Source: an uncultured Sulfuricella sp.
GTDB taxonomy: Bacteria; Pseudomonadota; Gammaproteobacteria; Burkholderiales; Sulfuricellaceae
DNA: 64,000 nucleotides
Direction: 5' to 3'
Assembly (NCBI GenBank): GCA_964505475.1
Contig: CAZDIJ010000008.1
Span: 381 to 64,380 of the forward strand
Part shown: positions 1,350 through 42,414 of the stretch, piece after piece
Layout: each line of letters begins with the position of its first letter
Numbering within the stretch: position 1 is the stretch's first letter
The notes under the pieces: model-generated
Seen by the model: the letters and a program-made list of their open reading frames with translations, nothing else
What the model was told of the DNA's origin: nothing
The model's database searches: none
Program-made: the position numbers and the translations under genes

Positions 1350-1371
1350 TACCCCCCAAGGAGAACCCGCC

Positions 1372-2441: not shown

Positions 2442-2465
2442 ATTGTATTTTTCAAGGAGAGCAAC

Positions 2466-2774: not shown

Positions 2775-2795
2775 TCGATTTATCGAATTTTTATC

Positions 2796-2969
2796 ATGCC
2801 TCTGAACCATTCTCAGTCGCCACGCCTTCCCTCGCTTGCGGGGGAAGGTTGGGATGGGGGCAAACACCGGCGGTTAAGCGGGCAAACGCCCCCTCCCCAA
2901 CCCTCCCCCGCACGCTACGCGCGCAAGGGAGGGCGTGCCTGCATAGGCTGAAAATAGTTCATAGGCATA
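2796..2969. mobile_element. MITE-like element, family A, full length
   Basis: Terminal inverted repeats ATGCCTCTGAACCATTCTCAG / CTGAAAATAGTTCATAGGCAT (18/21). The interior is a nested GC-rich palindrome. Flanked by ATTTTTATC / ATTTTTTAT, a degenerate 9-bp duplication. Confidence 0.75.
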
Positions 2970-2994
2970 ATTTTTTATTGAGAAAGGAAGCAAC

Positions 2995-3171
2995 ATGGAC
3001 GAAAACGTCGGTTACATCAATTTCGCCAGCGCCGAGGACGTGTCCCTGCACGCCCTGAAATTCGCCCGCGACGCGGAAAAAGGCCATCGCCAACTGGTGC
3101 AGTTGATCTTCGAATTGATGAAACAGCCCGAGCCTGGCAAGGCCGAACTGGAAAAGTTGCTCAAGCGCTGA
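2995..3171 (+). CDS. Hypothetical small helical protein (58 aa), nif-associated by position
   Basis: Not in the ORF track (<60 aa). ATG 2995 is preceded by AAGGAAG, and the third-position GC bias resembles neighbouring genes. Product: MDENVGYINFASAEDVSLHALKFARDAEKGHRQLVQLIFELMKQPEPGKAELEKLLKR. Possibly a Rop-like nif protein (unverified). Confidence 0.5.
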   Translation: MDENVGYINFASAEDVSLHALKFARDAEKGHRQLVQLIFELMKQPEPGKAELEKLLKR

Positions 3172-3199
3172 GCCGGACGAGGCGTCACCAAGGATGTCG

Positions 3200-3234
3200 C
3201 GGCGCGCGGAGAGCGGCACCACCTCCGCGCGCCG
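3200..3234 (+). terminator. Strong hairpin after the small ORF (possible terminator or attenuator)
   Basis: Perfect 12-bp GC stem (CGGCGCGCGGAG / CTCCGCGCGCCG) with an 11-nt loop. Only a weak, displaced T-run (GATTTTC) follows. Confidence 0.3.
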
Positions 3235-3276
3235 GCCATGTGATTTTCAAACAGCACCATCATAAGGAGAAAAGTC

Positions 3277-3648
3277 GTGAAGAAGCACAATATCGCAATC
3301 GTCGGTCTGGGGCGCGTCGGCTCGGTGTTCCTCAACGAACTGCTGGGCGAGAACGTCAGCGGCGTCAAGGTCGTGGCCGCCGTCGAAAAGGCCGAAACGC
3401 CCGCCAAGGCGGCTGCCGCCAAATCCCACGTCAAGGTTCTGTCCCTCGACGAACTGGTCGCCGAGGGCGACAAGATCGACGTGGTGTTCGACTTGAGCGG
3501 CGGCGCCAACGTCGCCGAGGAGCTGCACCGGAAATACGCCGCCAAGGGCAATCAGCACACCATCGTCGCCCCCGAGCGCATGGCGCACCTGATGCTGACC
3601 GTGATGGAAAACCAGAAGAACCTGCCGGACGTTCATCCGCAGCCGTAA
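3277..3648 (+). CDS. Small NAD(P)-binding Rossmann-like protein, function unknown
   Basis: GTG start after AAGGAGAA. The N-terminal IAIVGLGRVGS is a GxGxxG dinucleotide-binding motif. 123 aa, located between fdxB and nifQ. Confidence 0.6.
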   Translation: MKKHNIAIVGLGRVGSVFLNELLGENVSGVKVVAAVEKAETPAKAAAAKSHVKVLSLDELVAEGDKIDVVFDLSGGANVAEELHRKYAAKGNQHTIVAPERMAHLMLTVMENQKNLPDVHPQP

Positions 3649-3716
3649 TCGTAATCACCATCCCGCGCAGGCGCGGCCTCCCCGCCGCTCTGCGCCCCCT
3701 TGCCGGGAGCCGGAAC

Positions 3717-4259
3717 ATGAACCGCCAACAGATGTTGAATCAAGCCAACAACGCCGTCTCCGCCGCCACCCGCGCGCTCGCCTGGGTAATCAGCTCGGAG
3801 GAATACCGCCCGGCCATGCTGCGCGGCATCGCCACGGACGATTTCGACCGCCTGATGGAACGCTACTTTCCCGGAACCGGAACCGACCGCAAGGCATTGG
3901 CCAGCGGCTGCGCGCCGCTGCGCGACGACGAATTCCAGGACATCCTCGATTTACTGATGGAATACCGCGCCGACGACAGCGACGAAACGACATGGCTCGC
4001 CAACGCGGTGGCCGCCGCCTGCCTGGGCGGCAACCATTTGTGGCAAGACCTCGGCCTGGCCAACCGCCAGGAATTGTCCGGCCTGCTGCAAGCGAATTTC
4101 CCGCTGCTTTACGCCAGGAACACCGGCAACATGAAGTGGAAAAAGTTCTTCTACAAACAACTCTGCGAACGCGCCGAAGTGCAAGCCTGCCGCGCGCCGA
4201 GCTGCGCGGTGTGCGGCGACTATGCCGCCTGCTTCGGCGGCGAGGAAGCCGCCGCGTAA
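3717..4259 (+). CDS. nifQ: Nitrogen fixation (molybdenum processing) protein NifQ
   Basis: C-terminal CRAPSCAVCGDYAAC is the Cx4Cx2Cx5C NifQ signature. An internal ATG at 3717 of the long ORF 3240..4259 gives a typical NifQ length of ~180 aa. Confidence 0.8.
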   Translation: MNRQQMLNQANNAVSAATRALAWVISSEEYRPAMLRGIATDDFDRLMERYFPGTGTDRKALASGCAPLRDDEFQDILDLLMEYRADDSDETTWLANAVAAACLGGNHLWQDLGLANRQELSGLLQANFPLLYARNTGNMKWKKFFYKQLCERAEVQACRAPSCAVCGDYAACFGGEEAAA

Positions 4260-4490: not shown

Positions 4491-5552
4491 ATGGATATCC
4501 ACAACAAACCGATCCAGCAGCGCATCGAATGGCTGATCGGGCACGCCGACCGGCACGCGGCGGCGTTTTGCAGCCCGGAGCAATACCTCGCGCGGGAACG
4601 CTACCTGGCCGAGCATCCCACCGCGATCACGGTGCTGAAGTGCATGGACGGACGCATCAACATCCCGGTCGCCACCAACACGCCGCCCGGCATCATCACG
4701 CCGATCCGCAACCTGGGCGGCCGTTTCGACCTGGGCTGGCCGCATCTCGGCGAGGTGCTGGCGCACCATGTGCACGAGCGGGTATCCGCCGGGCGGCGGA
4801 TGATGATGCTGATTACCTACCACTATTCCAAGGGCGACCCGCACCGCGGCTGCGCCGGTTTCAGCTACGACACCGAGGCGGCGAAGGCGCATACCTACGC
4901 CATCAAAAAGCAGGTCGAGCATGTCTTCGGCAGCGGCCACGGCACGGTCTACCCGATCGTCTGCGGCTTTGAAACCGACGAGGATGCACTGATCCTGCAT
5001 GGCAGCAACGGCGACAAGCTCGACATGTCGGCGCTGGAAGGAGAGAGTCCGGGCAAGCTGGAACAGCGCCTCGAAACGCTGTTCCCGGACATGCCCAATC
5101 AGGTGCTGCACGATCTGCTGCCGCTACTGCTGGGCAATATCGAGCATATCGCCGAGGTCAAGCAGATGCCCCGCACTCTCGACATCGAGCACCGCGAATG
5201 GATGATCTGCCTGGGGCGCGGCTTCGACTTCCTGCACATGCCCAACCTCGCCCTGATTATCGGCCCCTACAGTCCTGACTTGGCCGACCCGATCAGCAAG
5301 GCGGCGGGCATCATCCAGAGCAACATGAAGGCCGGGCGCATCCCGGACGACGGTTTCCTGCTGCTGACTTCGGTGCCCTATGCCGAGATCGGGGTGGATC
5401 GCGCCCGCGCCGAACTCAAGTCGCGCTTCCTGTCGCAATTCGCCGCCAATGTGATCCGCAGCGAATTTTCCGAACTGGCCGGAAAAATGTTCGTGCGCGC
5501 GGCGGTGCTCAACCCGCGTTCCCGCACCCTGGAGGAAATAGCGCTGGAATAG
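4491..5552 (+). CDS. Uncharacterised protein with collinear beta-carbonic-anhydrase-like motifs
   Basis: GGAGAGG RBS. Motifs in order: LKCMDGR (CxDxR), ITPIRNLGGR (compare the RNxGN motif) and HRGCAGF (HxxC). At 353 aa it is longer than classical beta-CAs. Assignment rests on motifs only. Confidence 0.45.
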   Translation: MDIHNKPIQQRIEWLIGHADRHAAAFCSPEQYLARERYLAEHPTAITVLKCMDGRINIPVATNTPPGIITPIRNLGGRFDLGWPHLGEVLAHHVHERVSAGRRMMMLITYHYSKGDPHRGCAGFSYDTEAAKAHTYAIKKQVEHVFGSGHGTVYPIVCGFETDEDALILHGSNGDKLDMSALEGESPGKLEQRLETLFPDMPNQVLHDLLPLLLGNIEHIAEVKQMPRTLDIEHREWMICLGRGFDFLHMPNLALIIGPYSPDLADPISKAAGIIQSNMKAGRIPDDGFLLLTSVPYAEIGVDRARAELKSRFLSQFAANVIRSEFSELAGKMFVRAAVLNPRSRTLEEIALE

Positions 5553-5556
5553 GCGC

Positions 5557-7038
5557 TTATCGCAGCCTGGCCACCCAGGCTTCCCCAGCCGGCTTGATGA
5601 CATCGAGAACGGCGGCGGGGTAGAAACCGACGGCCAGGACGATGGCCGTGGCGGCCAGGGCAATCGCCAGTTCGCGCGGACGCAGGTCGGCGGCGTCGGC
5701 AACCACCGGATTGGTGACCGGCCCGAAGAAACCACGGCGGTAAATCCCCAGGAAATAGGCGGCGCCGAGCACCATCGCGAACAAGGCGGCCAAGCCCGCG
5801 CCGGTGTGGGTGTTGAGGGCGGACAACAGGATCAGCAGTTCGGCCGGGAAGCCGCTGGTGCCCGGCAGCCCCATGGTTGCCAGCCCCAGCAGCAGGATGA
5901 AAGTGGCCAACAACGGCATGGAGCGCGCCGCGCCGCCCAGGCTGACGATGTCGGTGGAACCGACGCGATGATGCAGGAAGCCGGTCAGCAGGAACAAGCC
6001 GCCGGCCGCCATGGTGAAATTCAGCAGTTGCAGCACCGCCCCCTGCAAACCTTGCAGGTTGAAGGAACTCAATCCCAGCACCACCAGGCCGACATGGGAC
6101 AGGCTGGAATAGGCCAGCATCTGCCGCAGGTTGGTTTGCGCCAGCGCCGCCACCGCGCCGTACAGCACGGCCACGGTGCCCAGCCCGGCGAACAGCCAGT
6201 GCAGCTCGCGCGCCGCTTCCGGCGCCAGCGGCACGGCAAACCGGATCAGGCCGTAGGCGCCGAGCTTGAGGCCGACCAGCAACGCCGTCACCGCCACCGG
6301 ACCTTCCATCGTCATCACCGGCAGCCAGGTGTGCAAGGGAAACAATGGGGTCTTCACCGCGAAACCGAGCAGCAGCAGCAGGAAAATCATCCATTCGACC
6401 CCGCCCGGCGCCGGCGTGGCCAGCAACGACGGCAGGTCGAAAGCCAGACCCGCGCCGGTTTGCGCCGCGTGGCTGAAGGCCAGCATCAGAAAGCCGATCA
6501 GCAGGGGCACGCCGCCCGCCAGCATGACCAGCGTGTATTTCACCGCGGCATAGCGCCGGTTGGGACCGACTCCCCAAAGACTTACCAGGAAATACAAGGG
6601 CACCAGCGACAGTTCCCAGAACAGGAAGAACAGGATGGTGTCGAGCGAACAGAATATCCCCAGGGTGGTGGTTTCCATCAGCAACAGCAAGCTGTAGTAC
6701 AGGCGCGGCAAGGCATGCACGCTGTTCCACGAGGCCAGGATCACGCCGATGAAGAGTAGCACCGTGGCGGGCAGGAACAGCACCGAGATGCCGTCCACGC
6801 CGACCAGGTAATGGATGTTGAGGGTGGGTATCCAGTCGATTTTTTCCACCAGTTGAAAGCCGGGACGAGCCGGATCGAATTTCGCCACGATCGCCAGGGA
6901 AATCGCCAAGTCGATCAACGCCGTAACCAAGGCGACGCGGCGCGCCCATTCGGGGCGCGGCAGCAGCCAGGCGAGCGCGGCGCCCGCGGGAAGGGTGAGA
7001 AACAGCAGGCTGAGCAGGGGAAAAGCGGCGGCGTCCAT
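5557..7038 (-). CDS. NuoM/NuoN (NdhD)-type proton-translocating antiporter-like subunit, last gene of the DAB-like operon
   Basis: 493-aa polytopic protein with ..PLFPLHTWLPVMTMEGPVAVTALLVGLKLGAYGLIRF..AYSSLSHVG.., typical of the PF00361-type family. Its start lies 1 nt after the preceding stop. Confidence 0.8.
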   Translation of the reverse strand: MDAAAFPLLSLLFLTLPAGAALAWLLPRPEWARRVALVTALIDLAISLAIVAKFDPARPGFQLVEKIDWIPTLNIHYLVGVDGISVLFLPATVLLFIGVILASWNSVHALPRLYYSLLLLMETTTLGIFCSLDTILFFLFWELSLVPLYFLVSLWGVGPNRRYAAVKYTLVMLAGGVPLLIGFLMLAFSHAAQTGAGLAFDLPSLLATPAPGGVEWMIFLLLLLGFAVKTPLFPLHTWLPVMTMEGPVAVTALLVGLKLGAYGLIRFAVPLAPEAARELHWLFAGLGTVAVLYGAVAALAQTNLRQMLAYSSLSHVGLVVLGLSSFNLQGLQGAVLQLLNFTMAAGGLFLLTGFLHHRVGSTDIVSLGGAARSMPLLATFILLLGLATMGLPGTSGFPAELLILLSALNTHTGAGLAALFAMVLGAAYFLGIYRRGFFGPVTNPVVADAADLRPRELAIALAATAIVLAVGFYPAAVLDVIKPAGEAWVARLR

Positions 7039-7039
7039 G

Positions 7040-8551
7040 TCAATGATGTCCGAAATGCGCCGAGAGCGCTTGCAGCGAAGCCTCGACCAGTTTCATCCAG
7101 GGTTCGAGATAAAACCCGGTCACCAGCAGCACCGCCAGAATGCCGCCGGCCACCAGATATTCCATCGGCAAGGTGGCCTCGATCGTACCGGGCGGCCGCC
7201 ATTCCGGGCGCGGCGCCAGGAAGGCGCGCTGGAAGGCCCACAGCAGGAAGCCGGCGGTGACCACGTTACCCAGCGCGGCGGCCACGGTGGGCAGCGCGCC
7301 GAACTTGTCGATGGCCGCCTCCAGCACCAGATGCGCCGCGTCGAAGCCGGGGGTGCCGGGCATGCCGATGATGGAAAAGCCTCCGACCAGAAACGTCATG
7401 CTGAGGAAGGGAATGCGGTCGAACAACCCTCCCAGGCGATCGAGCGAAGTCGTGTGGGTGCGCCGGTAGACGAACCCGACCATGAACAGCAAGGCGGTGG
7501 CGGCCAGGCCGAAATTGACCGCGAGCAGGATGCCGCCCTGGAAGCCGGCGTGATGCAGGCTGAACAGGCCGATGGTAATCAGGCTGGTGTGGCTGACCAC
7601 GGCGAAGGCGATCAGGCGGCGCAAATCCTTTTGCAGGAAGGCGAGGAAGGCGGCGTAGAAAACTCCGGTGGCGGCGAAGGCGACCACATAGTTTTGCCAC
7701 TGGACGACGGCCTCCGGCACCAGCGGAAAAACGAAACGCACCAGCCCGTAGATGCCGACCTTGATGCCCAGCAGCAAAACCGGGGCGATGGCCACGTTGC
7801 CATGCTCGGCCATGAGCGGCAGCCAGCCGTGCATCGGAAACAGAGGGGTGCGGATCGCCAGGCCGTAGAACAGCAGGAAGAACACCACCGAGGACAGCGG
7901 GGCGGCGATGTGGATGGCCGCCAGATCGACCAGATCGAAGCTCCAGCGCCCCCCGGCGGCATCGGCATGGCTCCAGCCCGCCACCAGCACGCCGGCCAGC
8001 AACAATAGCAGCCCGGTGCCCTGGAACTGATAAAAACGCGCCAGCGCCAGGTCTTTTTCCGCCGAGGTGGCCCAGCGCCACAACAGATGCCCGACCAGGC
8101 CGATTTCGATGGCCGAGGCCAGCACGAACCAGAGCAGATTGGTGGTGGTGAGCAGGGAAATCAGCACGCCCTCGATGGCCAGCAAGATTCCGATCAGCCG
8201 GCTGGGTTCGCCGAGTCCGCGCACCAGGCCGTAAATGCTGAGCAGGAAGGCGAGCAACGCGGTGAGCAGCACGAACAGCACCGTCACGCCGTCGGCGGCG
8301 GCATGATAGCCGAACGGTCCGAAGAGATCGACCCGTTCGGCCAGTTGCAGCGCCGGGGAGCCGATGTCGATGCGGCGATAAAGCGTGGCGGCCAGCAGCA
8401 ATTCCGCCAACACCAGGAAGCGCCCCAAGATCACCGCGCCGCGCCGTTCCCCGAGCAGCAGCAGGGCGCCCGCGCCGAGCAGCGGAATGGCTTGCAGGGC
8501 GCCGAGCAACGGAAACCCGGACTGCTGCGCCCAGTGAATTTCAGTCATCAT
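7040..8551 (-). CDS. NuoM (NdhD)-type antiporter-like subunit
   Basis: 503 aa, ..TPLFPMHGWLPLMAEHGNVAIAPVLLLGIKVGIYGLVRF..AFAVVSHTS.. . Confidence 0.8.
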   Translation of the reverse strand: MMTEIHWAQQSGFPLLGALQAIPLLGAGALLLLGERRGAVILGRFLVLAELLLAATLYRRIDIGSPALQLAERVDLFGPFGYHAAADGVTVLFVLLTALLAFLLSIYGLVRGLGEPSRLIGILLAIEGVLISLLTTTNLLWFVLASAIEIGLVGHLLWRWATSAEKDLALARFYQFQGTGLLLLLAGVLVAGWSHADAAGGRWSFDLVDLAAIHIAAPLSSVVFFLLFYGLAIRTPLFPMHGWLPLMAEHGNVAIAPVLLLGIKVGIYGLVRFVFPLVPEAVVQWQNYVVAFAATGVFYAAFLAFLQKDLRRLIAFAVVSHTSLITIGLFSLHHAGFQGGILLAVNFGLAATALLFMVGFVYRRTHTTSLDRLGGLFDRIPFLSMTFLVGGFSIIGMPGTPGFDAAHLVLEAAIDKFGALPTVAAALGNVVTAGFLLWAFQRAFLAPRPEWRPPGTIEATLPMEYLVAGGILAVLLVTGFYLEPWMKLVEASLQALSAHFGHH

Positions 8552-8593
8552 CCTTGCAACCTCTGTTCACCGCGGCAAAAGGAAAATATGGGT

Positions 8594-10132
8594 TCATAGA
8601 ATCACCACGAAAGTCGCCATAATCAGCAGCAGCAGGTAGCGCGGCCGCTCCAGCAGGCTTTCCACGGACAGCAGATAGCCGCCCAGGAAGCCCAGGATGC
8701 GGCTGATCCGGCTGCCGCTTTCCTGCATTACCAGACGCCGCTCGAAGTCGTAAAAACGGTCGGCGCACCATTCCAGCATGGCGCCCGCCAAGCCCCGGCC
8801 ATGCACGATTTCGTCGCGGCCGCCGCGGGCGTCGGCGGCGGCGAGTCCCGCGCGGGCATCCTCGGGCATGCCCACCAGGCGGCTGACCACGCGGTCGTCG
8901 AGGTCGCGCATGTCGCGCGCCAGGCTTTGGGTGGGCTTCACCAGCAGCCAGTCGCCCAGCGCCTCCAGCCAGAAACGTTGCAGCGCCGCGGTGTAGAGCC
9001 GCTGGCGGCCGGCCAGCCAGCGCGGCGCCGGGCTGGCCGGATGGCCGGCGAGATGCATGTAGGAGGGCGAAGCGAGCATCTGCCAGGCGCGCCAGGCGGC
9101 GTGCAGCCCGAGATGCCAGGCGGCCAGGGTAAACAGGCCGAGGCCGCACTCCAGGAACATCAGGCCGACCTGGGCGGTGGTGGCGAAGATCAGGGTGCTT
9201 TTCACATCGGTCTGGGCGAGTCCGCCGAGGTAGCCGTACAGGGCGGTAAGCAGGCCGATGAAAGCGATCAGGCTCATCATCGCCGGCGCCTGGATCAGCA
9301 AGGGTTCGAGGCGCAGGGTCAGGTAGACGCCGGCATGCACCATCAGGGCGCCGTAGAAAATCGCGCTGGAGGGGGTCGGTCCCTCCAGCGCCCGGCCAAG
9401 CCAGGGCGAGAAGGGAACCTGCGCCGACTTGGCCAGCGCCGCGAGCATGAAGCCCAGCGCCAGCAGGCCGGCATACAGGGTTTCCAGCCGTCCCGGCGCG
9501 GTAATCCCTGGCCATTCGACCGTGCCCAGCCAGATCGCGGCGAGAGCGATGCCGAGGATGAATCCGGCGTCGCCGATGCGGTTGGTGACGAAAGCGCGCA
9601 GGGCGTTGCCGGTGGCGGTGGGGCGCTCGTAGGCGTAACCGATCAGCAGAAAGGAGCTGACCCCGGCCAGTTCCCAACCCGCGAAGGCCAGTACGGCGTT
9701 GCCGGAAAGCACGATCAGCAACATGCCGGCGCTGAACAGGCTCATCGCCAGGAAAAAGCGGTGAAAACCCGCCTCGCGGTGCAGGTAGTTGACCGAGAAG
9801 CGCAGGGTGACGAGGGCGATCGCCGCGACCAGGGTGGCGATCGGCAGGGACAAAGCATCCAGAGCGAAGGACAGCGGCACGGCGAAACTGCCGCTGCTGA
9901 ACCAGGTACCCACATGGACTTGGCCGGGAACACCCTGGTTGAGGGCAAGCAGATCCAGCGCCAGCAGATGCAGCAAGGCGAGCGCCGCGGCGCCGCTGGC
10001 CAGCCGGGCGGTAAGCGGCTCGGCCGCGTCGCCGGCGGCGCGCCCGGACAATACGCGCAGGGCGACGGCGGCGGCGGCCAGCAAAGGCAGCAACGGGATC
10101 AGCCAGACAAGCCGCACCAGCATATCCATCAT
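8594..10132 (-). CDS. dabB: NuoL (NdhF)-type antiporter-like subunit, candidate DabB
   Basis: ..AFAGWELAGVSSFLLIGYAYERP..NRIGDAGFILGI..SAQVPFSPWLGRALEGPTPSSAIFYGALMVHAGVYL.. . The start was chosen at the ATGATG that overlaps the dabA TGA (ATGA). The listed ORF start at 10261 would overlap dabA by 130 nt. Confidence 0.8.
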   Translation of the reverse strand: MMDMLVRLVWLIPLLPLLAAAAVALRVLSGRAAGDAAEPLTARLASGAAALALLHLLALDLLALNQGVPGQVHVGTWFSSGSFAVPLSFALDALSLPIATLVAAIALVTLRFSVNYLHREAGFHRFFLAMSLFSAGMLLIVLSGNAVLAFAGWELAGVSSFLLIGYAYERPTATGNALRAFVTNRIGDAGFILGIALAAIWLGTVEWPGITAPGRLETLYAGLLALGFMLAALAKSAQVPFSPWLGRALEGPTPSSAIFYGALMVHAGVYLTLRLEPLLIQAPAMMSLIAFIGLLTALYGYLGGLAQTDVKSTLIFATTAQVGLMFLECGLGLFTLAAWHLGLHAAWRAWQMLASPSYMHLAGHPASPAPRWLAGRQRLYTAALQRFWLEALGDWLLVKPTQSLARDMRDLDDRVVSRLVGMPEDARAGLAAADARGGRDEIVHGRGLAGAMLEWCADRFYDFERRLVMQESGSRISRILGFLGGYLLSVESLLERPRYLLLLIMATFVVIL

Positions 10133-13100
10133 GCCGCCTCCCCTTCTGGCTGGCTCCATGGCACCGGGCGGGTCAACAGCGCCGGCGTCAAAGGCTCGCG
10201 CTGGCCGGCGAACCAGTCGGCGGAACATTCCACCTCGGGCAAGCGCGCGCCGCCTTCCCATTCCAGCCAGCCGCGCGCCGGGTCGAAAAGATGAATGGCG
10301 GCGCTCTCCGGGTCCTTGGCGGCGACAATCAGCCAGCCGTTGCCGATCAACTCCTGCAACGGCGGCTGGCGCTGGTAGATGGCGGTGACGAGTTCGACGG
10401 TGTTTTCCACCACCACCAGCAGGCGCATCGCCTCATGGATCTCGATCATCTGGCGCGGCAGGCCGGTGCGCAGGTCGGAACCTGCGCCTTCCATGACGCC
10501 GAGCAGGCCGGTGACGTTGTGCAGTATCTTGGTGCCGCAGCCGTACTGCTCGTTGTTCACCGTGGAAAAATAGTATTCCAGGCTGATCCCCGCGCCCACC
10601 GGGCCGTTGGCCAGCAGCAGCCCTTCCAGCACCTTGCCATCGGGGTCCTCGGCCGGGTCGTAGGAAATCAGAAAGGAACGCCGGTCGAAGAAAGCGCCGC
10701 GGCTCAGGGAACGGCGGCCGATAAAGGCGCAGGCGTTGGTGGCATGCCCCAACTCGGGGCGCGCCTGGGAAAAATCGTAGCGGCGTCCGACGACATGGCG
10801 CAGAGCGCTGTCCTTGCCGATGCCGAGGGGGGCTGAGGCGAGGCGGCGGCAGCGTTCCTGGGCGTGGGCGCGGGAAGCCTCGGCCAATTCACGGTCGAGC
10901 TTGGCATGGGCGGCGCGCAGTTCCGCCGGGATGTCCTCCAGATCGTACCAAATCACCGAGTCGTCGCAGGTGTTGTGCTCCGCGCCGAGAAACCAGGCGC
11001 CCGGCGGAATGGCGATGCCGCGTTCGGCAAGCAGCGCGCGCACCTCGGGGCGGTTGGCCATGCCCGCGAACAGGCGGGCGTTGGGGCCGCTGTGGCGGCC
11101 GGAGCAGGCGCCGCAATCGTAGGCCGATAGATGCGGGTTGTTCTGGCTGTTGGAGCCGTGTCCCACGATCACCGCCAGCGGAGCGAAACGGCCGGTCAGC
11201 CCGATGTTGCGCAGAAAGGCTTGCACCCGGTCTGCCTGCTCGGCGTCGGTGAAACCGGAGGGGCGCGGCGCATCCGGCGTGGCCGGGGCGCTGCCGGCCG
11301 GCGCGGTGAATTCGATGCGGGTCGGCACGCTCAGATCGAAGGATTGGGCGAGCCGGGCGGCGAAGCGGCCGAGACGGCCGGGCAGCAGCATTTTCCCGGC
11401 CAGCACCGCCAGGGCGGCGGGCGCGGCGACGGCGGACAGCAGCGCCGGAACGAGCAGGCCGCGGCGCGTGCCCTGGTGCAGCGTTTCCCGCCACTTCAGG
11501 CGCCGCGCCAGCCGCCGCCGATGCCGGGCGAAAAGCTCCTCGCTGCCGCCCCGCGGCAGTTCGCGCACTTCGTGGGCGGGCTTGGCCACCACCGGGCACA
11601 GCACGGTCGGCGCGTCATCGTCCAGGCCGTACCAGTTGATGAAAACGCTGAAATGGGCGGCCGCGCCGAAGGTTTCGAGGCGGGGATTGATTTCTTCGAG
11701 ATGGCGGCGCATCCCTTCCTCGCGGTCGTCCATGCAGAACACCAACTGCGCTTCGGGATCGGGATTCGCCGGACAGCGCGCGTGATTGGCGGCGACGGCG
11801 GCGAATATCTGCTCGCGGTAGTGGCGCTCGTAGGCATTCAGCCAGACGTAGCCGGTCTGGTCGGCGTCGAGGCGGGACAGGCCGCCGAGCAGCTTTTCCG
11901 CGCCGGCGCGGCCGATCGCGCGGATCTCGCCGCCGCGCAAGGCGAGGTGCTGGGCGAGAAGGAACAACGGCCAGGCGCTGCCGGCCACGCTGGCGCCGCC
12001 GCGCCGGTCGGCGGCGGGAGTCTGGCGCCATGCCCACAACAGCCCGGCCAAGCGGCGCCAGGCAGCCTCATCGACCGTTTCCCGGCGCTGCACGGCTTCC
12101 TGCACCTGGCGCTGCGCCAGGCTCACCAGGTACTCGGGCAGGCGCCCTTCAAACAGGGCGTGGCGCACCACCAATTCCTCGGCGTGGTGGCGGAAATGCC
12201 AGCGCAACACGTCGAGGCTGGCTTCGATGCGCCAATGGCGGCGGCACAGACGCTGGGAAAAAATCCGTTCCAGCACCAGTCTGACCGCGAGGAAGTCCAA
12301 CATTTCCACCGGCGTTCCCAGTCCGGCATGGCCGGGATGGTCATGGCGCCACAGCACCATGCCGAACCAGCCGGGAATTTCCAGGGCGAGCCGCTCCAGA
12401 TAGCCCGCCCAGCGCGCCTCGGGCAGGCCGAGCAGGCCGAGTTCCTGGACGATGGCGTCGAGTGAATCGCCGGGCAGGCGCTCCAAATGGGTTTTCCATT
12501 CCGGCAAGTCGGCGAAGACCCACGCCAGGTCGCTGGCGGCGCTCGCGCGCCAGGCCGCGTAGAAACCTTGCGGACGGCTGGGGTTGTGCCAGGCGGCCAG
12601 CCCCTGGTCGAGGTGGGAGGCGATATGGCGGATCAGCAGCGGGCGCAGTTCGTCGAGCAGGTCCTCGCCGGTAAGCGCGCGCAGCAGGGAACGCAACGTC
12701 CACGCTCCGCCCAGGCGCTCCAGCAGATCGTCCAGCAGCCGGTGGGCTTCCTCGCCGATCTGGAGGGCGACCGAAGGCTGTTCCGCCGCGCTGGCGAGCG
12801 CCGCGGTTTCTCCCGGATCGGAGGAAGGCTCCAGGAGTTCCTCGGGATGCAGCGAGGCATGTTCCAGCCCCAGCGTTTCGACGCAGGCCGCCCACAACTC
12901 TCCGACCGCCGCGGCTTCCCCGGCGTCGCCCAGCAGGCGGCTTCTCGCCTCTTCGGCGACATTGGGCTGAAAAGCGCAAAGGGCGCGGTTTTCCTCTACC
13001 TGCCATTTGAGCTGGCTGCGGGACAGGTGCTTGACCGGGTAAAGCAGCGAGGCGAGCGCCACCTCGCCCAGGGTAACCGTCCGGCCGGGCGCGCGCGCCA

Positions 13101-13401
13101 ACTCGGCGGCGGTGTCGAGACCGGATGCCTCGCGCAGCGCGGACTCCAGATCGGCTCGGCTGATCCTGCCCTGGGCGTAAAATTCGCGGAAGCGTTCTTC
13201 CGGCAGGTAGGCGCTGGCGCCGGTCAATTGGCGTGCGGCGGAAACCGCCTGGGTAAAGTGCAGGTGCTGGTAGCCGTGCAGGGTGTTGTGATGGACGAAA
13301 TCCTTGATCGGCGCCTGCGCCGGCAGCACGTGCTCGAGGCGGTGCGCCAGGTTGCGCAGTTGTTCGCGGATATCGCCGGAATGGTGTGAATCGCCGCTCA
13401 T
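10129..13401 (-). CDS. dabA: DUF2309 protein, candidate inorganic-carbon pump subunit DabA
   Basis: 1090 aa. N-terminal ..PIKDFVHHNTLHGYQHL.., FCMDDREE (CxDxR) and VGHGSNSQNNPHLSAYDCGACSG are the recalled DabA/UPF0753 zinc-site hallmarks. Located immediately upstream of a NuoL-like gene. Confidence 0.85.
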   Translation of the reverse strand: MSGDSHHSGDIREQLRNLAHRLEHVLPAQAPIKDFVHHNTLHGYQHLHFTQAVSAARQLTGASAYLPEERFREFYAQGRISRADLESALREASGLDTAAELARAPGRTVTLGEVALASLLYPVKHLSRSQLKWQVEENRALCAFQPNVAEEARSRLLGDAGEAAAVGELWAACVETLGLEHASLHPEELLEPSSDPGETAALASAAEQPSVALQIGEEAHRLLDDLLERLGGAWTLRSLLRALTGEDLLDELRPLLIRHIASHLDQGLAAWHNPSRPQGFYAAWRASAASDLAWVFADLPEWKTHLERLPGDSLDAIVQELGLLGLPEARWAGYLERLALEIPGWFGMVLWRHDHPGHAGLGTPVEMLDFLAVRLVLERIFSQRLCRRHWRIEASLDVLRWHFRHHAEELVVRHALFEGRLPEYLVSLAQRQVQEAVQRRETVDEAAWRRLAGLLWAWRQTPAADRRGGASVAGSAWPLFLLAQHLALRGGEIRAIGRAGAEKLLGGLSRLDADQTGYVWLNAYERHYREQIFAAVAANHARCPANPDPEAQLVFCMDDREEGMRRHLEEINPRLETFGAAAHFSVFINWYGLDDDAPTVLCPVVAKPAHEVRELPRGGSEELFARHRRRLARRLKWRETLHQGTRRGLLVPALLSAVAAPAALAVLAGKMLLPGRLGRFAARLAQSFDLSVPTRIEFTAPAGSAPATPDAPRPSGFTDAEQADRVQAFLRNIGLTGRFAPLAVIVGHGSNSQNNPHLSAYDCGACSGRHSGPNARLFAGMANRPEVRALLAERGIAIPPGAWFLGAEHNTCDDSVIWYDLEDIPAELRAAHAKLDRELAEASRAHAQERCRRLASAPLGIGKDSALRHVVGRRYDFSQARPELGHATNACAFIGRRSLSRGAFFDRRSFLISYDPAEDPDGKVLEGLLLANGPVGAGISLEYYFSTVNNEQYGCGTKILHNVTGLLGVMEGAGSDLRTGLPRQMIEIHEAMRLLVVVENTVELVTAIYQRQPPLQELIGNGWLIVAAKDPESAAIHLFDPARGWLEWEGGARLPEVECSADWFAGQREPLTPALLTRPVPWSQPEGEAA

Positions 13402-13402
13402 C

Positions 13403-14851
13403 TCAGAATAGCTGGCTCAATTGGTTGATCGAGGCCGTCATCAGATGCAGCGCCGGCGCGGGGAAAAAACCGATCGCCAGGATGCCGGCGGAGAGAACGC
13501 CGGCGGCGGCCAACTCGGTGCGCGTCAGATCGGGGACGTGACGCATGTTTTCGCGCACCGGACCGGTGAACAGGCGGCCGATGGTGCGGATGCCGTAGGC
13601 GGCGCTAATCAGCACGCCCAGGGAAAGCAGCGCCACCCAGCCGCCCCAGCGGGCAAAGCCGCCGACCAGGGCATGCAATTCGGCGATGAAGCTGGCGGTG
13701 CCGGGAAAACCGATGGCGGCGACGAAGGCCAGCACCGTGAAGAAGGCGAAGCGCGGCATGACGCGCACCAGCGAGCTGTAGTCGGCGATGTCGCGGGTGT
13801 GGGTACGGTCGTAAAGCAGGCCGATGAGCAGGAACAGGGCGCCGGCCACCAGGCCGTGGGCGATCATCTGCATCACCGCGCCGGTGAAGCCGGCGGCATT
13901 GAGCGCGGCGATACCGAGCAATACCACCCCCATGTGGCTGACCGAGGAATAGGCGACCATGCCCTTGAGATCGCGCTGGCGCCAGGCCAGCACGCCACCG
14001 TAGATCAGGCTGACCAGGGCGAGGGCGGCAAGCCAGCCCTGGAGGGCGACCACAGCGGCCGGCAGCATTTCGGCCGAGCGGATCAGGCCGTAGGAACCCA
14101 TCTTCAGCAGTATCCCGGAAAGCAGGATGGAAACCGGGCTGGGCGCTTCGACGTGCGCCAGGGGCAGCCAGCCGTGCAGGGGGAAAATCGGCATCTTGAC
14201 GCCGAAGCCGATCAGCAGGCCGATGAACAGCAGTATCTGGATGTTTTCCGGCAGTTTCGCGGCGCCGTGGGCGATCAGCACCATGTCGAAACTGTGGCCG
14301 GGCGCCGCGTCATAGATCATGAGCAGGGCAACCAGCATGAAAACCGCGCCGCCCATGGTGTACAACACGAAGTTGAGCGCCGCGCGGTGGCGGTTCTCGC
14401 CGCCCCAGCGGTCGATCAGGAAGAACAGCGGAATCAGGGTGAGTTCCCAGAACACGTAGAACAGCGACCAGTCGCGCGCCATGAAGACGCCGAGCATGGC
14501 CGATTCCAGCAGCAGGATCAGAAAATAATACCCCTTGATCCCCTCGCGGATGACGCTGGAAGCGAGGATCGCCACCACGGTGAGCAGGGTGGCGAGCAGC
14601 ACCATCGGATAGGAAATGCCGTCCACCCCAAGCGAGAAGGCGCTGCCCAGGCGGGGATTCCAGACATGGGTTTCGAACATCTGGATACCCGGCTGGGAAG
14701 CGTCGAACTGGGTGAGCAGCCCCCATGCCATGACGAAGGCGACGCCGCCGGCCAGCAGGGCGACCAGCCGTATCAGGCGCGGTCTGGCGGCGGGCAGCAG
14801 GGCGATGAGCAGGGCGCCGAAAACCGGGGCAAGCAGCAATACTCTCAACAT
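13403..14851 (-). CDS. NuoM (NdhD)-type antiporter-like subunit, first gene of the DAB-like block
   Basis: 482 aa, ..MPIFPLHGWLPLAHVEAPSPVSILLSGILLKMGSYGLIR..AYSSVSHMG.. . Its stop lies 1 nt before the dabA ATG. Confidence 0.8.
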   Translation of the reverse strand: MLRVLLLAPVFGALLIALLPAARPRLIRLVALLAGGVAFVMAWGLLTQFDASQPGIQMFETHVWNPRLGSAFSLGVDGISYPMVLLATLLTVVAILASSVIREGIKGYYFLILLLESAMLGVFMARDWSLFYVFWELTLIPLFFLIDRWGGENRHRAALNFVLYTMGGAVFMLVALLMIYDAAPGHSFDMVLIAHGAAKLPENIQILLFIGLLIGFGVKMPIFPLHGWLPLAHVEAPSPVSILLSGILLKMGSYGLIRSAEMLPAAVVALQGWLAALALVSLIYGGVLAWRQRDLKGMVAYSSVSHMGVVLLGIAALNAAGFTGAVMQMIAHGLVAGALFLLIGLLYDRTHTRDIADYSSLVRVMPRFAFFTVLAFVAAIGFPGTASFIAELHALVGGFARWGGWVALLSLGVLISAAYGIRTIGRLFTGPVRENMRHVPDLTRTELAAAGVLSAGILAIGFFPAPALHLMTASINQLSQLF

Positions 14852-14930: not shown

Positions 14931-17045
14931 TCAAGGCCGGCGCAGCGGGCAGAAGGCGCCCTCGGTCGCATCATAACCCATGCACATGTAAATGGCATCC
15001 AGCGCCATGTCTTCGTTGGGGAAGATGTTGTCCTGGGTGATCTTGTCGAACAGGCCGGTGTGGCGCATCACGTCGATCACCTGCTTCTTCAGGCCGCTGA
15101 ACACCATGGTGATGTCGTTTTCCTTCAAGCGCTCCACCAGGTGATGGATGACCTCCTCGCCGGAGGCATCGAGTTGGTTGATGCCGTCGCCCACCACCAG
15201 CAGGAACTTGGCGTTGGGTTTGTGGGCGGCCGCCTCGAGAATGGCGTCCTCGAAGAATGGCACATTGGCGAAATAGAGCGAGCCGTCGAAACGCATGACG
15301 ATGATGTTTTCATCGGTCGGCAAATCGGGATGCACGCTCAGGTCGCGCAAGGTGCCGTCGTGATAGCGGCCAAGCTGGGCGACGCGCGGCTGCATGGTGC
15401 GGTACAGGTAGAGGATGATGGCCAGCCCGGCGCCCGCCATGATGCCGTTGTCGAGATGCGGAGCGAAGGCGAGCGTGGCGACAAAAGTGACCACCGAAGC
15501 GACGCCGTCGTGCTTGTGGGCGTGCCAGGCATGCTTGATCGCCTTGAAGTTGACCAGCCCGACCACCGCCATCATGATTACCGCGGCCAGCACCGCCTGC
15601 GGCAGATGGTAGAGCAGCGGGGTGAGGAACAGCAGGGTAACCAGCACGATCAGGCCGGTGAATACCGAGGACATGCCGGTCTTGGCGCCGGCGTTCATGT
15701 TGACCGCGGAACGCGAGAACGACCCGGAAACCGGGAAGGCCTGGCTCAAACTGCCGACGATGTTGGCGATGCCCTGGCCGACCAGTTCCTTGCTTGGATC
15801 GAGGCGCTGCTTGGTCTTGGCGGCGATGGCCTTGGCGATGGAAATGGCTTCCATGAAGCCGACCAGCGAAATCACCAGGGCGCTGCCGAGCAGAGCCATG
15901 ACGTTATCCCAGCCCAGCTTCGGCATTTGCATGTCGGGCAGACCGGAGGGAATGCCGCCGACCACGTCGCCGCCGCCGGAAAGGCTCAGCTCGCCTTCCT
16001 TCACCTTCTTGATGCGCCAGCGGTGGCCGTCGGTATCGACCCCCTTGGGCGCATGGTTCTTCAGGTAAAGGCGTGCCGGCTCCTCGCTGCTGGCCGGCGC
16101 CATGTCGAGGATGAACTTGCGCATGGTGCGCGCCGCCTTGCGTTTTTCGTCCTCGACATCCTTGAGCGTGCCCTGGAGCAGTTCGATCTCATAGTGCAGG
16201 GCGGCGACCAGGCGGTCATCCTCTTCCGGCTCCTTTTCCAGCTTTTTGATGCGCGCCAGCCGGGAAGTGATCTGCTTGTTGATGGAGGCGACGCGCGCCT
16301 CGTTGAACCACGCCAGTTCGATGACTTCGCGCACCTCGCTGTCCATGACCTGCTCGACCTTGACCTTGGCGGTCTGCTCGAAGCCGATCGCCCAGCTCAC
16401 CACCGTGGTGAGCGCCACGGCGATCAGCACCCCCGGCAGCCTGGGCAGGTATTTTTTCAGCCCCCACATGATGGCGAAGGCGGCCACCCCCATGAGCAGC
16501 GTGGGAATATGGGTATCGCCGATCTGTTGCAACACCCCCCAGATGTCGTTGACGAAGTGTTCGCTGCGCCCCATCGACACCCCGAAAATCTTGTTGAGCT
16601 GCGACAGTCCGATGATGATGGCGGCGGCGTTGGTGAAACCGACGATGACCGGGTGAGAGAGAAAGTTGACGATCACCCCCAGCTTGAACAGCCCGAGCAG
16701 CAACTGGATGCAGCCGACCAGCAAGGCCAGCAGGATGGCCAGGGCGATGAACTGCTCCGAGCCGAGCGCGGCAAGGGGCGCCAACGCCGACGCGGTCAGC
16801 AGCGACACCACCGCCACCGGGCCGGTGGCGAGCTGGGACGACGACCCCCACATGGCGGCGATCATCACCGGCAGGAACGAGGCATAAAGCCCGTAATAGG
16901 CCGGCAGCCCGGCCAACTGGGCATAAGCCATGGACTGGGGAATCAGCACCAGCGCCACGGTAATGCCAGCGATCAAATCGGCCTTGACGGCATCGCCGCG
17001 CAACGGGAACCACTTGAGAAACGGAAACAGATTATGGATAGACAT
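14931..17045 (-). CDS. SulP-family anion transporter with C-terminal STAS domain and a large internal insertion
   Basis: N-terminal ..DLIAGITVALVLIPQSMAYAQLAGLP..GPVAVVSLL.. is SulP-type. The C-terminal ~120 aa are STAS-like (..IIVMRFDGSLYFANV..). A ~135-aa charged, coiled-coil-like segment (residues ~225-360) interrupts the membrane domain. Confidence 0.85.
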   Translation of the reverse strand: MSIHNLFPFLKWFPLRGDAVKADLIAGITVALVLIPQSMAYAQLAGLPAYYGLYASFLPVMIAAMWGSSSQLATGPVAVVSLLTASALAPLAALGSEQFIALAILLALLVGCIQLLLGLFKLGVIVNFLSHPVIVGFTNAAAIIIGLSQLNKIFGVSMGRSEHFVNDIWGVLQQIGDTHIPTLLMGVAAFAIMWGLKKYLPRLPGVLIAVALTTVVSWAIGFEQTAKVKVEQVMDSEVREVIELAWFNEARVASINKQITSRLARIKKLEKEPEEDDRLVAALHYEIELLQGTLKDVEDEKRKAARTMRKFILDMAPASSEEPARLYLKNHAPKGVDTDGHRWRIKKVKEGELSLSGGGDVVGGIPSGLPDMQMPKLGWDNVMALLGSALVISLVGFMEAISIAKAIAAKTKQRLDPSKELVGQGIANIVGSLSQAFPVSGSFSRSAVNMNAGAKTGMSSVFTGLIVLVTLLFLTPLLYHLPQAVLAAVIMMAVVGLVNFKAIKHAWHAHKHDGVASVVTFVATLAFAPHLDNGIMAGAGLAIILYLYRTMQPRVAQLGRYHDGTLRDLSVHPDLPTDENIIVMRFDGSLYFANVPFFEDAILEAAAHKPNAKFLLVVGDGINQLDASGEEVIHHLVERLKENDITMVFSGLKKQVIDVMRHTGLFDKITQDNIFPNEDMALDAIYMCMGYDATEGAFCPLRRP

Positions 17046-17134: not shown

Positions 17135-17533
17135 TCATCCCGGCGCTCCTGCGGACTTTATCGCCGCCACGGCCAGCGGACACGCCAGTTTTTCCCACGC
17201 GCCCGCTTGCCCGCCCCAGCTTTCCGTGGAATCTATCACCACGCAAGCCACGCACTCGTGCGTATTGGCATAGCGCACCACCTCCCGGGCGGAAAGCGTC
17301 GGCTGGTAGCCGATACGGTACTGAAGCCCGTCTTCCTCGCATTGCCGCAGCAATCCCGCGAGCGGCGCGGGCGGATTTTCCTTGTCGGCCTGCATCAGGA
17401 TTTCCAGCCCGGCGCTCATTCTTTTCGCCAGGCTCGACGCGGACGAAAACAAACGCTGATCGAGATGCTCGCCCTTGACGGCCAGCAATACCCGGCGCGG
17501 GGGAAATGGCACGGCGACTCCCGGTGCGGTCAC
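17135..17533 (-). CDS. Hypothetical protein (possibly USP-like alpha/beta fold)
   Basis: 132-aa ORF with a GTG start, located upstream of the SulP gene on the same strand. No diagnostic motif recognised. Confidence 0.4.
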   Translation of the reverse strand: MTAPGVAVPFPPRRVLLAVKGEHLDQRLFSSASSLAKRMSAGLEILMQADKENPPAPLAGLLRQCEEDGLQYRIGYQPTLSAREVVRYANTHECVACVVIDSTESWGGQAGAWEKLACPLAVAAIKSAGAPG

Positions 17534-17741: not shown

Positions 17742-17757
17742 AGCAGATTTCATGCCA
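17742..17757 (-). promoter_or_regulatory. Candidate sigma54 (-24/-12) promoter for the hypothetical-SulP-DAB transcription unit
   Basis: The minus strand reads TGGCATGAAATCTGCT. GG and GC have the consensus spacing of TGGCACG-N4-TTGCW, with two mismatches. It points toward 17533. Confidence 0.5.
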
Positions 17758-42412: not shown

Positions 42413-42414
42413 TT

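Follow-up and report, generated by a model that had tools for sequence, protein, structure and literature searches.

How many antiporter-like subunits, and how many ion paths, can serve a single carbonic-anhydrase-like head? The question is raised by a gene cluster from an uncultured Sulfuricella sp. (Gammaproteobacteria; Burkholderiales; Sulfuricellaceae), which lies in a stretch of 64,000 nucleotides (nt) of contig CAZDIJ010000008.1 (assembly GCA_964505475.1, positions 381 to 64,380 of the forward strand), hereafter called the window. Five minus-strand genes of the cluster encode, in order, a NuoM-type antiporter-like subunit (M1), a cytoplasmic subunit resembling β-carbonic anhydrases (CAs) and known as DabA, a NuoL/NdhF-type subunit (DabB) and two further NuoM-type proteins (M2 and M3). 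An initial annotation of the window took them for an expanded DAB, in which a complete complex-I/Mrp-like arm with four ion channels would act on one head. As set out below, the five-gene form is a real, conserved and common, as yet uncharacterized, enlarged variant of DAB. The reading favoured here, to which we give a probability of roughly 0.6, is that the five genes specify one DAB-family complex, i.e. a vectorial carbonic anhydrase that is driven by the proton-motive force (pmf) and whose arm has been extended from one to four antiporter-like subunits.

Along the minus strand, the gene for M1 (13403..14851; 482 amino acids, aa) is followed by those for DabA (10129..13401; 1090 aa), DabB (8594..10132; 512 aa), M2 (7040..8551; 503 aa), a full-length NuoM-type protein with a degenerate channel, and M3 (5557..7038; 493 aa); the successive spacers measure 1, -4, 42 and 1 nt. 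The M1/DabA junction reads TGA-G-ATG and the M2/M3 junction TGA-C-ATG, while DabA and DabB share an ATGA overlap and the 42-nt gap separates DabB from M2; the five open reading frames (ORFs) and the letters at their junctions match exactly those first reported. The ORFs are taken to be the coding frames because of their codon-position GC content, the value for third positions (GC3) being 0.84-0.87 in the five frames versus 0.6-0.7 in overlapping ones. For DabB, a longer ORF with its start at 10261 was considered and rejected; orthologues of 496-523 aa favour the start at 10132. Scans for terminators and promoters within the operon returned counts near the shuffled expectation. The proposal that M1, DabA, DabB, M2 and M3 form one translationally coupled unit is confirmed; gene order and tight spacing are kept across related loci.

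Those loci come from a scan of one genome per species, in which more than 570 genomes encode a relative of DabA; the best 80 of these (DabA 47-82 % identical) were compared with the window proteins by tblastn. The order M1-DabA-DabB-M2-M3 is kept in this 80-locus set wherever the contig permits. All five genes are complete and in order at 58 of the 80 loci, at 18 the absent genes coincide with contig ends, and at three (L036, L064 and L071) one gene is split or partial; the sole locus without DabB-M2-M3 despite having sequence after dabA is L075. Median intergenic gaps across the loci, from M1 to M3, are 4, -8, 10 and 14 nt, and the five-gene arrangement is far beyond chance. The closest relative locus, again from an uncultured Sulfuricella sp., has a DabA that is 82 % identical and membrane subunits that are 87-90 % identical to those of the window. 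Hosts within the set comprise Sulfuricellaceae, Thiobacillus, Rhodocyclaceae/Azonexaceae, Sedimenticolaceae and Ca. Thiodiazotropha, as well as a Lamellibrachia endosymbiont, Chromatiaceae, Acidiferrobacterales and Thiohalomonas, such that symbionts of both lucinids and tubeworms are included. A protein-identity look-up added the genome of an isolate, Sulfuritortus calidifontis (L082), where the order is histidine kinase, sigma-54 response regulator, SulP, M, A, L, M and M, and showed that Ca. Accumulibacter also has the five-gene form. One operon locus (L076) is labelled as a Candidatus Bathyarchaeota metagenome-assembled genome; it is probably a binning contaminant, because its proteins are 50-66 % identical to proteobacterial ones.

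Beyond these close relatives, an exhaustive profile search yielded 4264 representative clusters of DabA, of which ten were sampled. The five-gene form was found again in four of the ten, at DabA identities of 36, 41, 46 and 47 %. A three-gene SulP-A-L-M form occurred twice, one DabA was paired with a single 888-aa PF00361 protein that may be an L-M fusion, and forms of DabA associated with MpsC or P-II were also present. From the sampled forms it follows that the membrane parts of DAB systems have one, about 1.5 (counting the DabC subunit introduced below), two or four antiporter-type subunits. Intermediate DAB architectures are seen at L089 (8001-13972), L094 (8001-13905) and L090 (238-5764); in the intermediate SulP-DabA-L-M form, the L subunit has 467-479 aa and no terminal anchor helix, and the M subunit is strongly degenerate. 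Some DabA homologues (P0383, P0385, P0388, P0395, P0399, P0402 and P0411) are as long as 1250-1440 aa, with N-terminal extensions of 400-570 aa, and the genes around P0383 still follow the order M-A-L-M-M-SulP, the L subunit there having 678 aa.

The assignment of the 1090-aa product as DabA, originally made from its DUF2309/DabA hallmarks, is upheld by the family model PF10070, which scores 790 bits (gathering score 25) over model positions 2-747 of 747, and the motifs quoted at the time are present. In a phmmer comparison with PDB sequences, the sole match to the protein was Halothiobacillus neapolitanus DabA2 (9rd0_A; E 2e-69), with FCMDDREE aligned to FCIDVRSE of DabA2 and GHGSNSQNNPH...DCGAC to GHGSSTTNNPH...DCGAC. 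Because they align with these motifs of DabA2, C556, D558, H748 and C763 are the predicted Zn ligands, corresponding to C351, D353, H524 and C539 of DabA2; they are kept in 80-81 of 81 orthologues. An AlphaFold2 (AF2) model of DabA has a predicted local distance difference test score (pLDDT) of 80, and its best Foldseek match, a weak one (probability 0.87) in a structure library evidently without 9rd0, is to the β-CA CsoSCA. The only hydrophobic stretch in the protein is a helix-hinge-helix at residues 649-689 (11335..11457, minus strand), delimited by hydrophobicity, conservation and the AF2 model, in which helices span 650-672 and 674-689; A660-P661 and K670 within it are conserved. This segment is presumed to be the counterpart of the membrane-inserting finger, or elbow, that has been described for DabA1 and DabA2 (PMC13144422; bioRxiv 10.64898/2026.05.01.722082).

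In one respect the active site departs from that of the characterized pumps. Residue His886 (codon 10744-10746, minus strand) is invariant in 81 of 81 orthologues and aligns with Leu658 of DabA2. That leucine (L825 in DabA1, L658 in DabA2) is strictly conserved and occupies the site of the β-CA transition-state hydrogen-bond donor, where canonical β-CAs have Gln or His. Histidine at this position is shared by the five-gene forms with an intact active site, the three-gene forms and some others (the loci checked include L088, L089, L090, L093 and L094), and leucine is found in the DabAs associated with MpsC or P-II. Two distant five-gene loci, L086 (4690-7896) and L092 (3723-6842), encode a DabA without the Zn ligands (Cys replaced by Ser, and the His and Cys motifs lost). 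At both, DabB and some of the M subunits also lack key channel residues; judged by their residues, the two loci seem to encode pseudo-enzymes built on this same scaffold. The joint loss, although seen in two cases only, is a hint of coupling and would be expected if head and channels were under a common constraint.

The second core subunit, DabB, has domains PF00662 and PF00361 and is thus of the NuoL/NdhF type that had been anticipated after DabA, a placement that its Foldseek match to the NuoL fold and the ATGA coupling bear out. Models for NuoL match it only at their first 353-357 of 615-630 positions; its PDB matches are NdhF1 (E 1e-58), Escherichia coli NuoL (2e-47) and DabB2 (9rd0_B, 6.5e-30), and the top Foldseek match of the structural model is again E. 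coli NuoL, with a root-mean-square deviation of 2.4-2.9 Å over ~365 residues. In the protein, transmembrane (TM) helices 1-11 are followed by a region resembling the lateral helix and by one last TM helix. Nothing equivalent to NuoL TM12-15 can be detected, and no residue aligns with K399/D400. Among the channel residues, E154, R185, D188, K235, H266 and H344 are retained, the key ones being invariant across orthologues, and both ion pairs of NuoL (E154/R185 and D188/K235) are kept and wholly invariant. By comparison, DabB2 of the two-subunit system has Ile151 in place of the TM5 Glu, which its authors read as the loss of a regulatory pair, and restoring the Glu in DabB2 halved growth yield (PMC13144422). 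The presence of the TM5 Glu in the protein studied here fits a DabB that would have a lateral neighbour.

The same may be said of the C-terminal part of DabB, residues 371-512 (8597..9022, minus strand), which is made up of a lateral-helix start motif, about 96 residues and an anchor helix. The start motif reads LYTAALQRFWLEALGDWLLVKP in DabB, LYQFSLHKWYFDELY in NdhF1 and WGFDWLYDKVFVKP in E. coli NuoL; HMMER aligned DabB 359-422 with NdhF1 554-615, and a local alignment matched the region of the E. coli motif. From VKP to the terminal TM helix there are 96 aa in DabB versus 38 aa in E. coli NuoL (~58 more), and these ~96 residues are mostly helical and amphipathic. The anchor, RPRY-LLLLIMATFVVIL, occupies residues 493-512. 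This combination of RPRY and TM anchor is present in every five-gene form examined, whereas the L subunits of the three-gene forms end in a polar tail. The initial annotation had raised the presence or absence of the lateral helix of NuoL; a NuoL-type motif and an anchor are present in DabB, and TM12-15 are absent. In complex I of Nitrospira (the 2M form) and of Manganitrophaceae, each extra pump subunit comes with a lateral-helix insertion of ~26 aa (PMC9040806).

For the three flanking proteins of 482, 503 and 493 aa, the early description as NuoM/NdhD-type is borne out by matches to PF00361 (M1, 231 bits; M3, 201 bits; also M2) and by scores of 491 (M1), 268 (M2) and 455 bits (M3) with the NuoM subfamily model TIGR01972 (cutoff 264). 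All three fall under every NuoM equivalog cutoff of NCBIfam. The best PDB matches of M1 are ND4/NuoM/NdhD1 chains (E 2e-89), and the NuoM matches of M2 reach E 3e-45. M1 and M3 are 38 % identical, and each is 33 % identical to E. coli NuoM; being about as far from each other as from NuoM, they are regarded as old paralogues. They are also the more constrained part of the system, with median identities to the window across the loci of 68 % (M1) and 63 % (M3) versus 54 % for DabA and 57 % for DabB.

Channel residues were mapped by alignment to E. coli NuoL, NuoM and NuoN. In M1, the set consists of E136, K219, H226, K250, H306, H332 and E391, invariant in 74 of 74 orthologues; in M3 it consists of E142, K229, H236, K258, H315 and E400, invariant in 62 of 62. 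The full NuoM set is therefore found in both, except for His348, which is Phe in M3. M2 is different. Its TM5 Glu is replaced by Ala147, its TM7 Lys by Arg234 and its TM12 Glu by Ala406, with K264, H241 and H321 kept; among 66 orthologues, the TM5 position is A, V, F, T or L, the TM7 position is Arg throughout (66 of 66) and the TM12 position is A or V in all but two (64 of 66). The gene after dabB at the distant loci L086, L091, L092 and L095 again combines loss of the TM5 Glu with a TM7 Arg, the TM12 position being variable. Since the carboxylates at TM5 and TM12 are missing from M2, whose TM7 Lys is moreover replaced by Arg, three channels are to be expected rather than four, i.e. DabB together with the DabA finger, M1 and M3, with M2 as a putative relay or spacer. 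Of the four ion channels envisaged at the outset, M1 and M3, with their invariant residues, and DabB, with its ion pairs, thus hold up, and M2, degenerate in all orthologues, does not. Similarly, the loss of charged residues from the M genes, which the initial annotation had regarded as the mark of a degenerate remnant, is true of M2; M1 and M3 keep them.

Among known systems, the nearest is DAB2 of H. neapolitanus (PDB 9rd0; PMC13144422), which likewise has a PF10070 DabA with the same Cys/Asp/His/Cys Zn site and a hydrophobic hairpin, and a coupled NuoL-like DabB with conserved TM1-11, in which the pair equivalent to D188/K235 and His344 are kept. The differences are several. DAB2 has two subunits versus five genes here; in DabB2, Ile occupies the site of the TM5 Glu and there is only a short axial helix, whereas the present DabB has Glu/Arg, a lateral region of ~120 aa and an anchor TM helix, and is nearer in sequence to NdhF1/NuoL than to DabB2. 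DabA2 is also shorter (827 versus 1090 aa, the extra residues lying mainly at ~95-255, 395-515 and in the C-terminal tail) and has Leu658 where His886 is found here. Although the initial annotation spoke of DABs as two-component systems, that statement is outdated, as DAB1 of Thermocrinis albus and H. neapolitanus is a DabA1-DabC-DabB1 heterotrimer, in which DabC is a hydrophobic, non-pumping half-NuoM that aligns to the NuoM helices beside NuoL and is needed in vivo (bioRxiv 10.64898/2026.05.01.722082). DAB1 resembles the five-gene form in its long DabA (1046 aa in H. neapolitanus), in having a third membrane subunit at the NuoM position by DabB and in the non-pumping nature of that subunit, which is comparable, from its description, to the degenerate M2. 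It differs in its gene order (A-C-B versus M-A-B-M-M) and in that the five-gene form has three full-length NuoM-type subunits, two of them with intact channels. When set against the hallmarks of DABs, the system described here has the PF10070 subunit, the Zn ligands and a NuoL-like subunit coupled to DabA, together with a presumed finger; it departs from them in subunit composition (neither A+B nor A+B+C), in having no DabB2-type loss of the TM5 Glu and in lacking the conserved Leu.

The arrangement is not categorically new, as its neighbourhood was noted in 2017. In COGNAT clade C (Klimchuk et al. 2017, PMC5700660), ybcC (COG3002) lies upstream of a nuoL homologue, and the neighbourhood "frequently contains" genes for SulP (COG0659) and NuoM (COG1008). 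In that note, which covers 711 genomes, no function could be predicted, the subunits were not counted, residues were not analysed and no connection with CO2 hydration was drawn. Beyond it, no characterization of the five-gene form was found in the full-text literature searched (subscription-only papers lay outside the search), and the preprint of Desmarais et al. (2018), a 2024 minireview of the inorganic-carbon toolkit and two structure papers of 2026 deal with two- and three-subunit DABs only. The original statement that this architecture was not known as a described system must therefore be tempered with respect to the neighbourhood, but it stands with respect to its characterization.

Three other kinds of machine share parts of this design. 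Cyanobacterial NDH-1MS and MS' (NdhF3/NdhD3/CupA and NdhF4/NdhD4/CupB) also place a CO2-hydrating head on an NdhF(L)-NdhD(M)-type arm, and the best PDB sequence match of DabB is cyanobacterial NdhF1. Here, however, there is no Cup protein, no redox (Q/ferredoxin) module and no NdhA/B/C/E/G, the β-CA-like DabA head is unrelated to CupA, and DabB scores 138 bits with the NdhF3 model (cutoff 589). The 2M complex I of Nitrospira and Complex_I_3 of Ca. Manganitrophaceae are alike in having additional NuoM-type subunits and a longer lateral helix in the L-type subunit; they are redox-driven and have full Nuo sets, whereas here there is a carbonic-anhydrase-like head and the L-type subunit has no TM12-15. 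Complex I would demand a NuoL/NdhF of full length, in which TM12-15 and the TM12 Lys are present, and DabB is not such a protein. Scores with MrpA and MrpD models are ~120-160 bits versus cutoffs of 540-1100, and neither an MrpB/C/E/F/G small subunit nor an MrpA C-terminal domain is encoded in the cluster. A Pfam scan of 35 ORFs of the window returned no family of the Q-module, Cup proteins or small membrane subunits (NuoB/C/D/H/A/J/K), and, as had been observed before for Nuo/Ndh, the cluster has no Nuo/Ndh/Mrp subunit besides those described. Given the lack of Q-module, Cup and small subunits and the truncation of the L-type subunit, the system is, by its encoded parts, not complex I, NDH-1MS or Mrp. 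The idea of a complete complex-I/Mrp-like arm is in part sustained: the lateral helix, the ion pair and the channels of M1 and M3 agree with it, and the absence of TM12-15, NuoA/J/K and MrpB/C/E/F/G does not.

Where the initial annotation fell short was in stopping at five genes, since it missed both a SulP/STAS gene upstream and a convergent gene for a CsoSCA-like protein; the functional unit is probably larger and includes both. The SulP/STAS anion transporter (14931..17045, minus strand; 704 aa) is encoded 79 nt upstream of M1, with a GC3 of 0.87 and domains PF00916 and PF01740. It scores 437 bits with TIGR00815 (cutoff 380) and 138 bits with the BicA model NF050096 (cutoff 880), and is a candidate for bicarbonate transport. 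A SulP with at least 50 % identity occurs at 35 of the 80 loci, at 27 of them on the same strand; a terminator scan found no terminator-like site between SulP and M1, and SulP is probably co-transcribed with the operon. The protein has an insertion of ~120 aa (residues ~238-357), charged and coiled-coil-like, between the halves of the transport domain. Betaproteobacterial orthologues have the insertion, as seen from a single 2.1-kb tblastn match, whereas gammaproteobacterial ones, which give two abutting or overlapping pieces with a span of ~1.7 kb, appear to be without it.

On the other side, a β-CA homologue resembling CsoSCA (4491..5552, plus strand; 353 aa) converges on M3, the stop codons of the two genes being 4 nt apart. 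It matches PF20686 (CsoSCA_cat, E 3e-6), PDB 8thm_A (E 2e-4) and TIGR02701 (E 1.4e-10; 41 bits, cutoff 241), and these matches are weak yet reproducible; they are confined to the portion of the catalytic domain that surrounds the Zn site, and the full three-domain architecture of CsoSCA is not present. Its CxDxR motif (C51, D53 and R55), H111 and C121 are invariant in 18 of 18 sequences, and an orthologue, ~70 % identical, adjoins the operon at 17 of the 80 loci.

Divergent from SulP are genes for a sensor histidine kinase (17965-19464, plus strand) and a sigma-54-dependent response regulator of the NtrC family (19800-21155, plus strand), identified with Pfam and NCBIfam. Orthologous pairs adjoin SulP-M1 at L003, L007, L011, L021, L038 and L082, and the pair possibly regulates the cluster. 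A sigma-54-type promoter-like motif, TGGCATGAAATCTGCT, lies upstream of SulP (17742..17757, minus strand). Although motifs of this type are in excess in the window (three matches versus 0.38 expected) and a sigma-54 activator is encoded nearby, the one upstream of SulP is not kept at most related loci and is clear only at L007, and a promoter there is tentative. Between it and SulP are two small minus-strand ORFs (17135-17533 and 17541-17697) without family matches. At a few related loci, another kind of neighbour appears, namely a set resembling Hyf/formate hydrogenlyase (NuoH-like, PF00361, fused NuoC-D-like and NuoB-like proteins), at L005 (1641-8466) and L084/L085 (1-3438). In these, a groundwater betaproteobacterium (L005) and Ca. 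Accumulibacter (L084/L085), the set precedes M1 on its strand, with 70-245 nt between the end of the set and that gene. At L009 (19660-22631), NuoL-like and NuoH-like genes of this Hyf-like kind lie ~2 kb downstream of M3. The link to the Hyf-like neighbour could be functional, through CO2 from formate, or coincidental.

The remainder of the window contains part of a nif cluster (48-4259, plus strand), with NifE/N-type (PF00148) and NifX-type (PF02579) proteins, DUF269, a 2x[4Fe-4S] ferredoxin and NifQ, and an apparent nitrate-assimilation cluster (40083-48839, plus strand), with an NMT1/NrtA-like binding protein, a NirB-type nitrite reductase and a molybdopterin NasA-type reductase. Ahead of the latter, at 40083-40098, there is another sigma-54-type motif, TGGCACGGCTGTTGCT, and a fused Fer4_11+DmsC-like protein follows it (48889-50868). 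Additionally, there are two tandem TonB-dependent receptors (25133-29327, minus strand), a NifJ-type pyruvate:ferredoxin/flavodoxin oxidoreductase of 1198 aa (30031-33627, minus strand), an HrpA-type helicase (34422-38372, plus strand) and a CLC channel (56273-57595, plus strand).

How, then, might the five proteins work? As a DAB-type complex of the DabAB/DAC/MpsAB family, they would use the pmf to hydrate CO2 entering the cell to HCO3-. DabA would be the Zn-dependent, β-CA-like head, whose hairpin would insert into DabB in place of NuoL TM12-15, as in DAB1 and DAB2, and the lateral-helix clamp of DabB would run along the NuoM-type subunits, much as the clamp of NuoL does in complex I. M1 and M3, with their complete Lys/Glu/His paths, would translocate ions, whereas M2 would not pump and would serve as a spacer or relay, much like DabC of DAB1. 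Ions passing through several subunits would exert their effect laterally, along the central charged axis and the clamp formed by the lateral helix; on reaching DabB and the finger of DabA, this effect would gate a single buried CA site, in line with proposals for DAB1 and DAB2. With several ions per CO2 driving or gating a single head, HCO3- could be accumulated even when the pmf is low or the gradient to be overcome is steeper. With SulP as the candidate HCO3- transporter and the CsoSCA-like CA, the operon might constitute an inorganic-carbon supply island in this diazotrophic relative of Sulfuricella. What the sequences show directly is the gene content and the conservation of order, spacing and residues; we infer in this scheme a physical complex, the location of the M subunits on the NuoM side of DabB, the order of the subunits, the passage of more than one ion per CO2 and the direction of hydration.

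In favour of one extended complex are the M-A-L-M-M order and the tight spacing, which persist down to 36 % DabA identity in Beta- and Gammaproteobacteria. Furthermore, the TM5 Glu/Arg and long lateral region of DabB would, as argued from its sequence, make sense only if DabB had lateral neighbours, and DabC of DAB1 offers, by analogy, a precedent for a subunit at the M position of a DAB. Several points weigh on the other side. One proton at normal pmf suffices for ~1000-fold accumulation of HCO3-, and, one proton being enough, the need for several channels is left unexplained. M2, without its carboxylates, would break a continuous charged axis if it stood between the pumps. The substitution of His886 for the conserved Leu suggests that the active-site chemistry may differ from that of the characterized pumps. 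An active, free cytoplasmic CsoSCA-like CA would short-circuit a bicarbonate pump unless it were regulated or localized, and the 64-kb window has no carboxysome or RuBisCO genes. Single-chain AF2 gives the lateral-helix region of DabB (the C-terminal 150 residues) as helical with a pLDDT below 50, and for this reason the lateral-helix reading relies on motif, length and co-occurrence. Finally, the binding of the M subunits to DabAB is a prediction from sequence.

The alternative that survives best, although it is unlikely, would keep the M subunits in the complex as scaffolds or allosteric elements in the manner of DabC, with one ion per CO2 passing via DabB and the DabA finger. DabC is required and yet does not pump, M2 is degenerate, as is (strongly) the single M of the three-gene A-L-M forms, and, by established bioenergetics, one proton per CO2 is thermodynamically sufficient. 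This does not account for M1 and M3, which keep the TM5 Glu, TM7 Lys, TM8 Lys, His and TM12 Glu in all 62-74 orthologues and are more conserved than DabA and DabB; a pure scaffold would need no such buried charges, and DabC has lost them. A lower probability, on the order of a long shot, is given to an Mrp-like cation/proton exchanger or a Na+-coupled hydration of CO2, the extra M subunits providing a second ion path. PF00361 is common to Mrp antiporters, many of the hosts are marine symbionts, and staphylococcal MpsAB has been argued to use Na+ (PMC13144422). Nevertheless, MrpB/C/E/F/G and the MrpA C-terminal domain are not encoded, M1 and M3 score 491 and 455 bits with NuoM models versus ~150 with MrpD, and DAB2 is proton-specific (PMC13144422), with the proviso that ion specificity cannot be read from sequence.

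Less probable still, and in our view very doubtful, is that the five proteins work with a redox partner, i.e. a Hyf/complex-I-like Q-module (cf. NDH-1MS-CupA), or in reverse, with the DabA reaction driving ion export. The latter was the original COGNAT proposal, which spoke of energy-converting complexes of a new type (PMC5700660), and the Hyf-like set 70-245 nt upstream of M1 at L005 and L084/L085, or downstream at L009 and probably L031, might be read as pointing to a redox partner. Yet such a neighbour is confirmed at three of the ~90 loci inspected, is looser at L009 and is absent from the window, and the Hyf-like cluster has antiporter subunits of its own; moreover, the free energy of CO2 hydration is too small for several ions, and the characterized DABs consume pmf. 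That the three M genes are the remnant of a Nuo/Mrp operon lying by coincidence beside a two-gene DAB, as the label 'NADH-quinone oxidoreductase subunit M' applied by annotation pipelines could suggest, is rejected, being effectively refuted by synteny: dabA-dabB sits between M1 and M2, order and tight spacing are kept from 82 to 36 % DabA identity, all equivalog NuoM models stay under their cutoffs, and M1 and M3 are strongly constrained.

If one extended DAB complex is accepted, a bolder proposal is that it represents a distinct class of DAB, in which one head is served by DabB, two active NuoM-type pumps, a relay or spacer and an extended clamp, with at least three protons per CO2 and lateral, charge-relayed coupling like that of complex I; the odds are somewhat against it, and it is put forward tentatively. 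The five-gene form may also be ancestral to the three-subunit DAB1, with its half-M DabC, and to the two-subunit DAB2, with its loss of the TM5 Glu. Work on DABs asks how proton flow leads to one-way hydration of CO2, and work on complex I asks by what means antiporter-like subunits that lie far apart are coupled to one another. The forms seen in the first structures of DABs, from 2026, have only two or three subunits. The five-gene form keeps the coupling features of NuoL (the TM5 Glu/Arg, the lateral helix and the anchor) and, while it lacks a redox module, adds two intact NuoM-type channels. These traits could make it a simple system in which to test lateral coupling and the stoichiometry of ions to CO2; if the proposal is true, it would offer a minimal model, free of redox chemistry, of how coupling spans long distances in the membrane arm of complex I. 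With more than 570 species-level genomes having a close relative of its DabA, inorganic-carbon acquisition in these autotrophs may depend on such a machine, whose parts are at present annotated separately as 'DUF2309' and as 'NADH dehydrogenase subunit M/L'. The five-gene form alters the annotation that inorganic-carbon uptake ought to receive in many sulfur-oxidizing autotrophs and symbionts.

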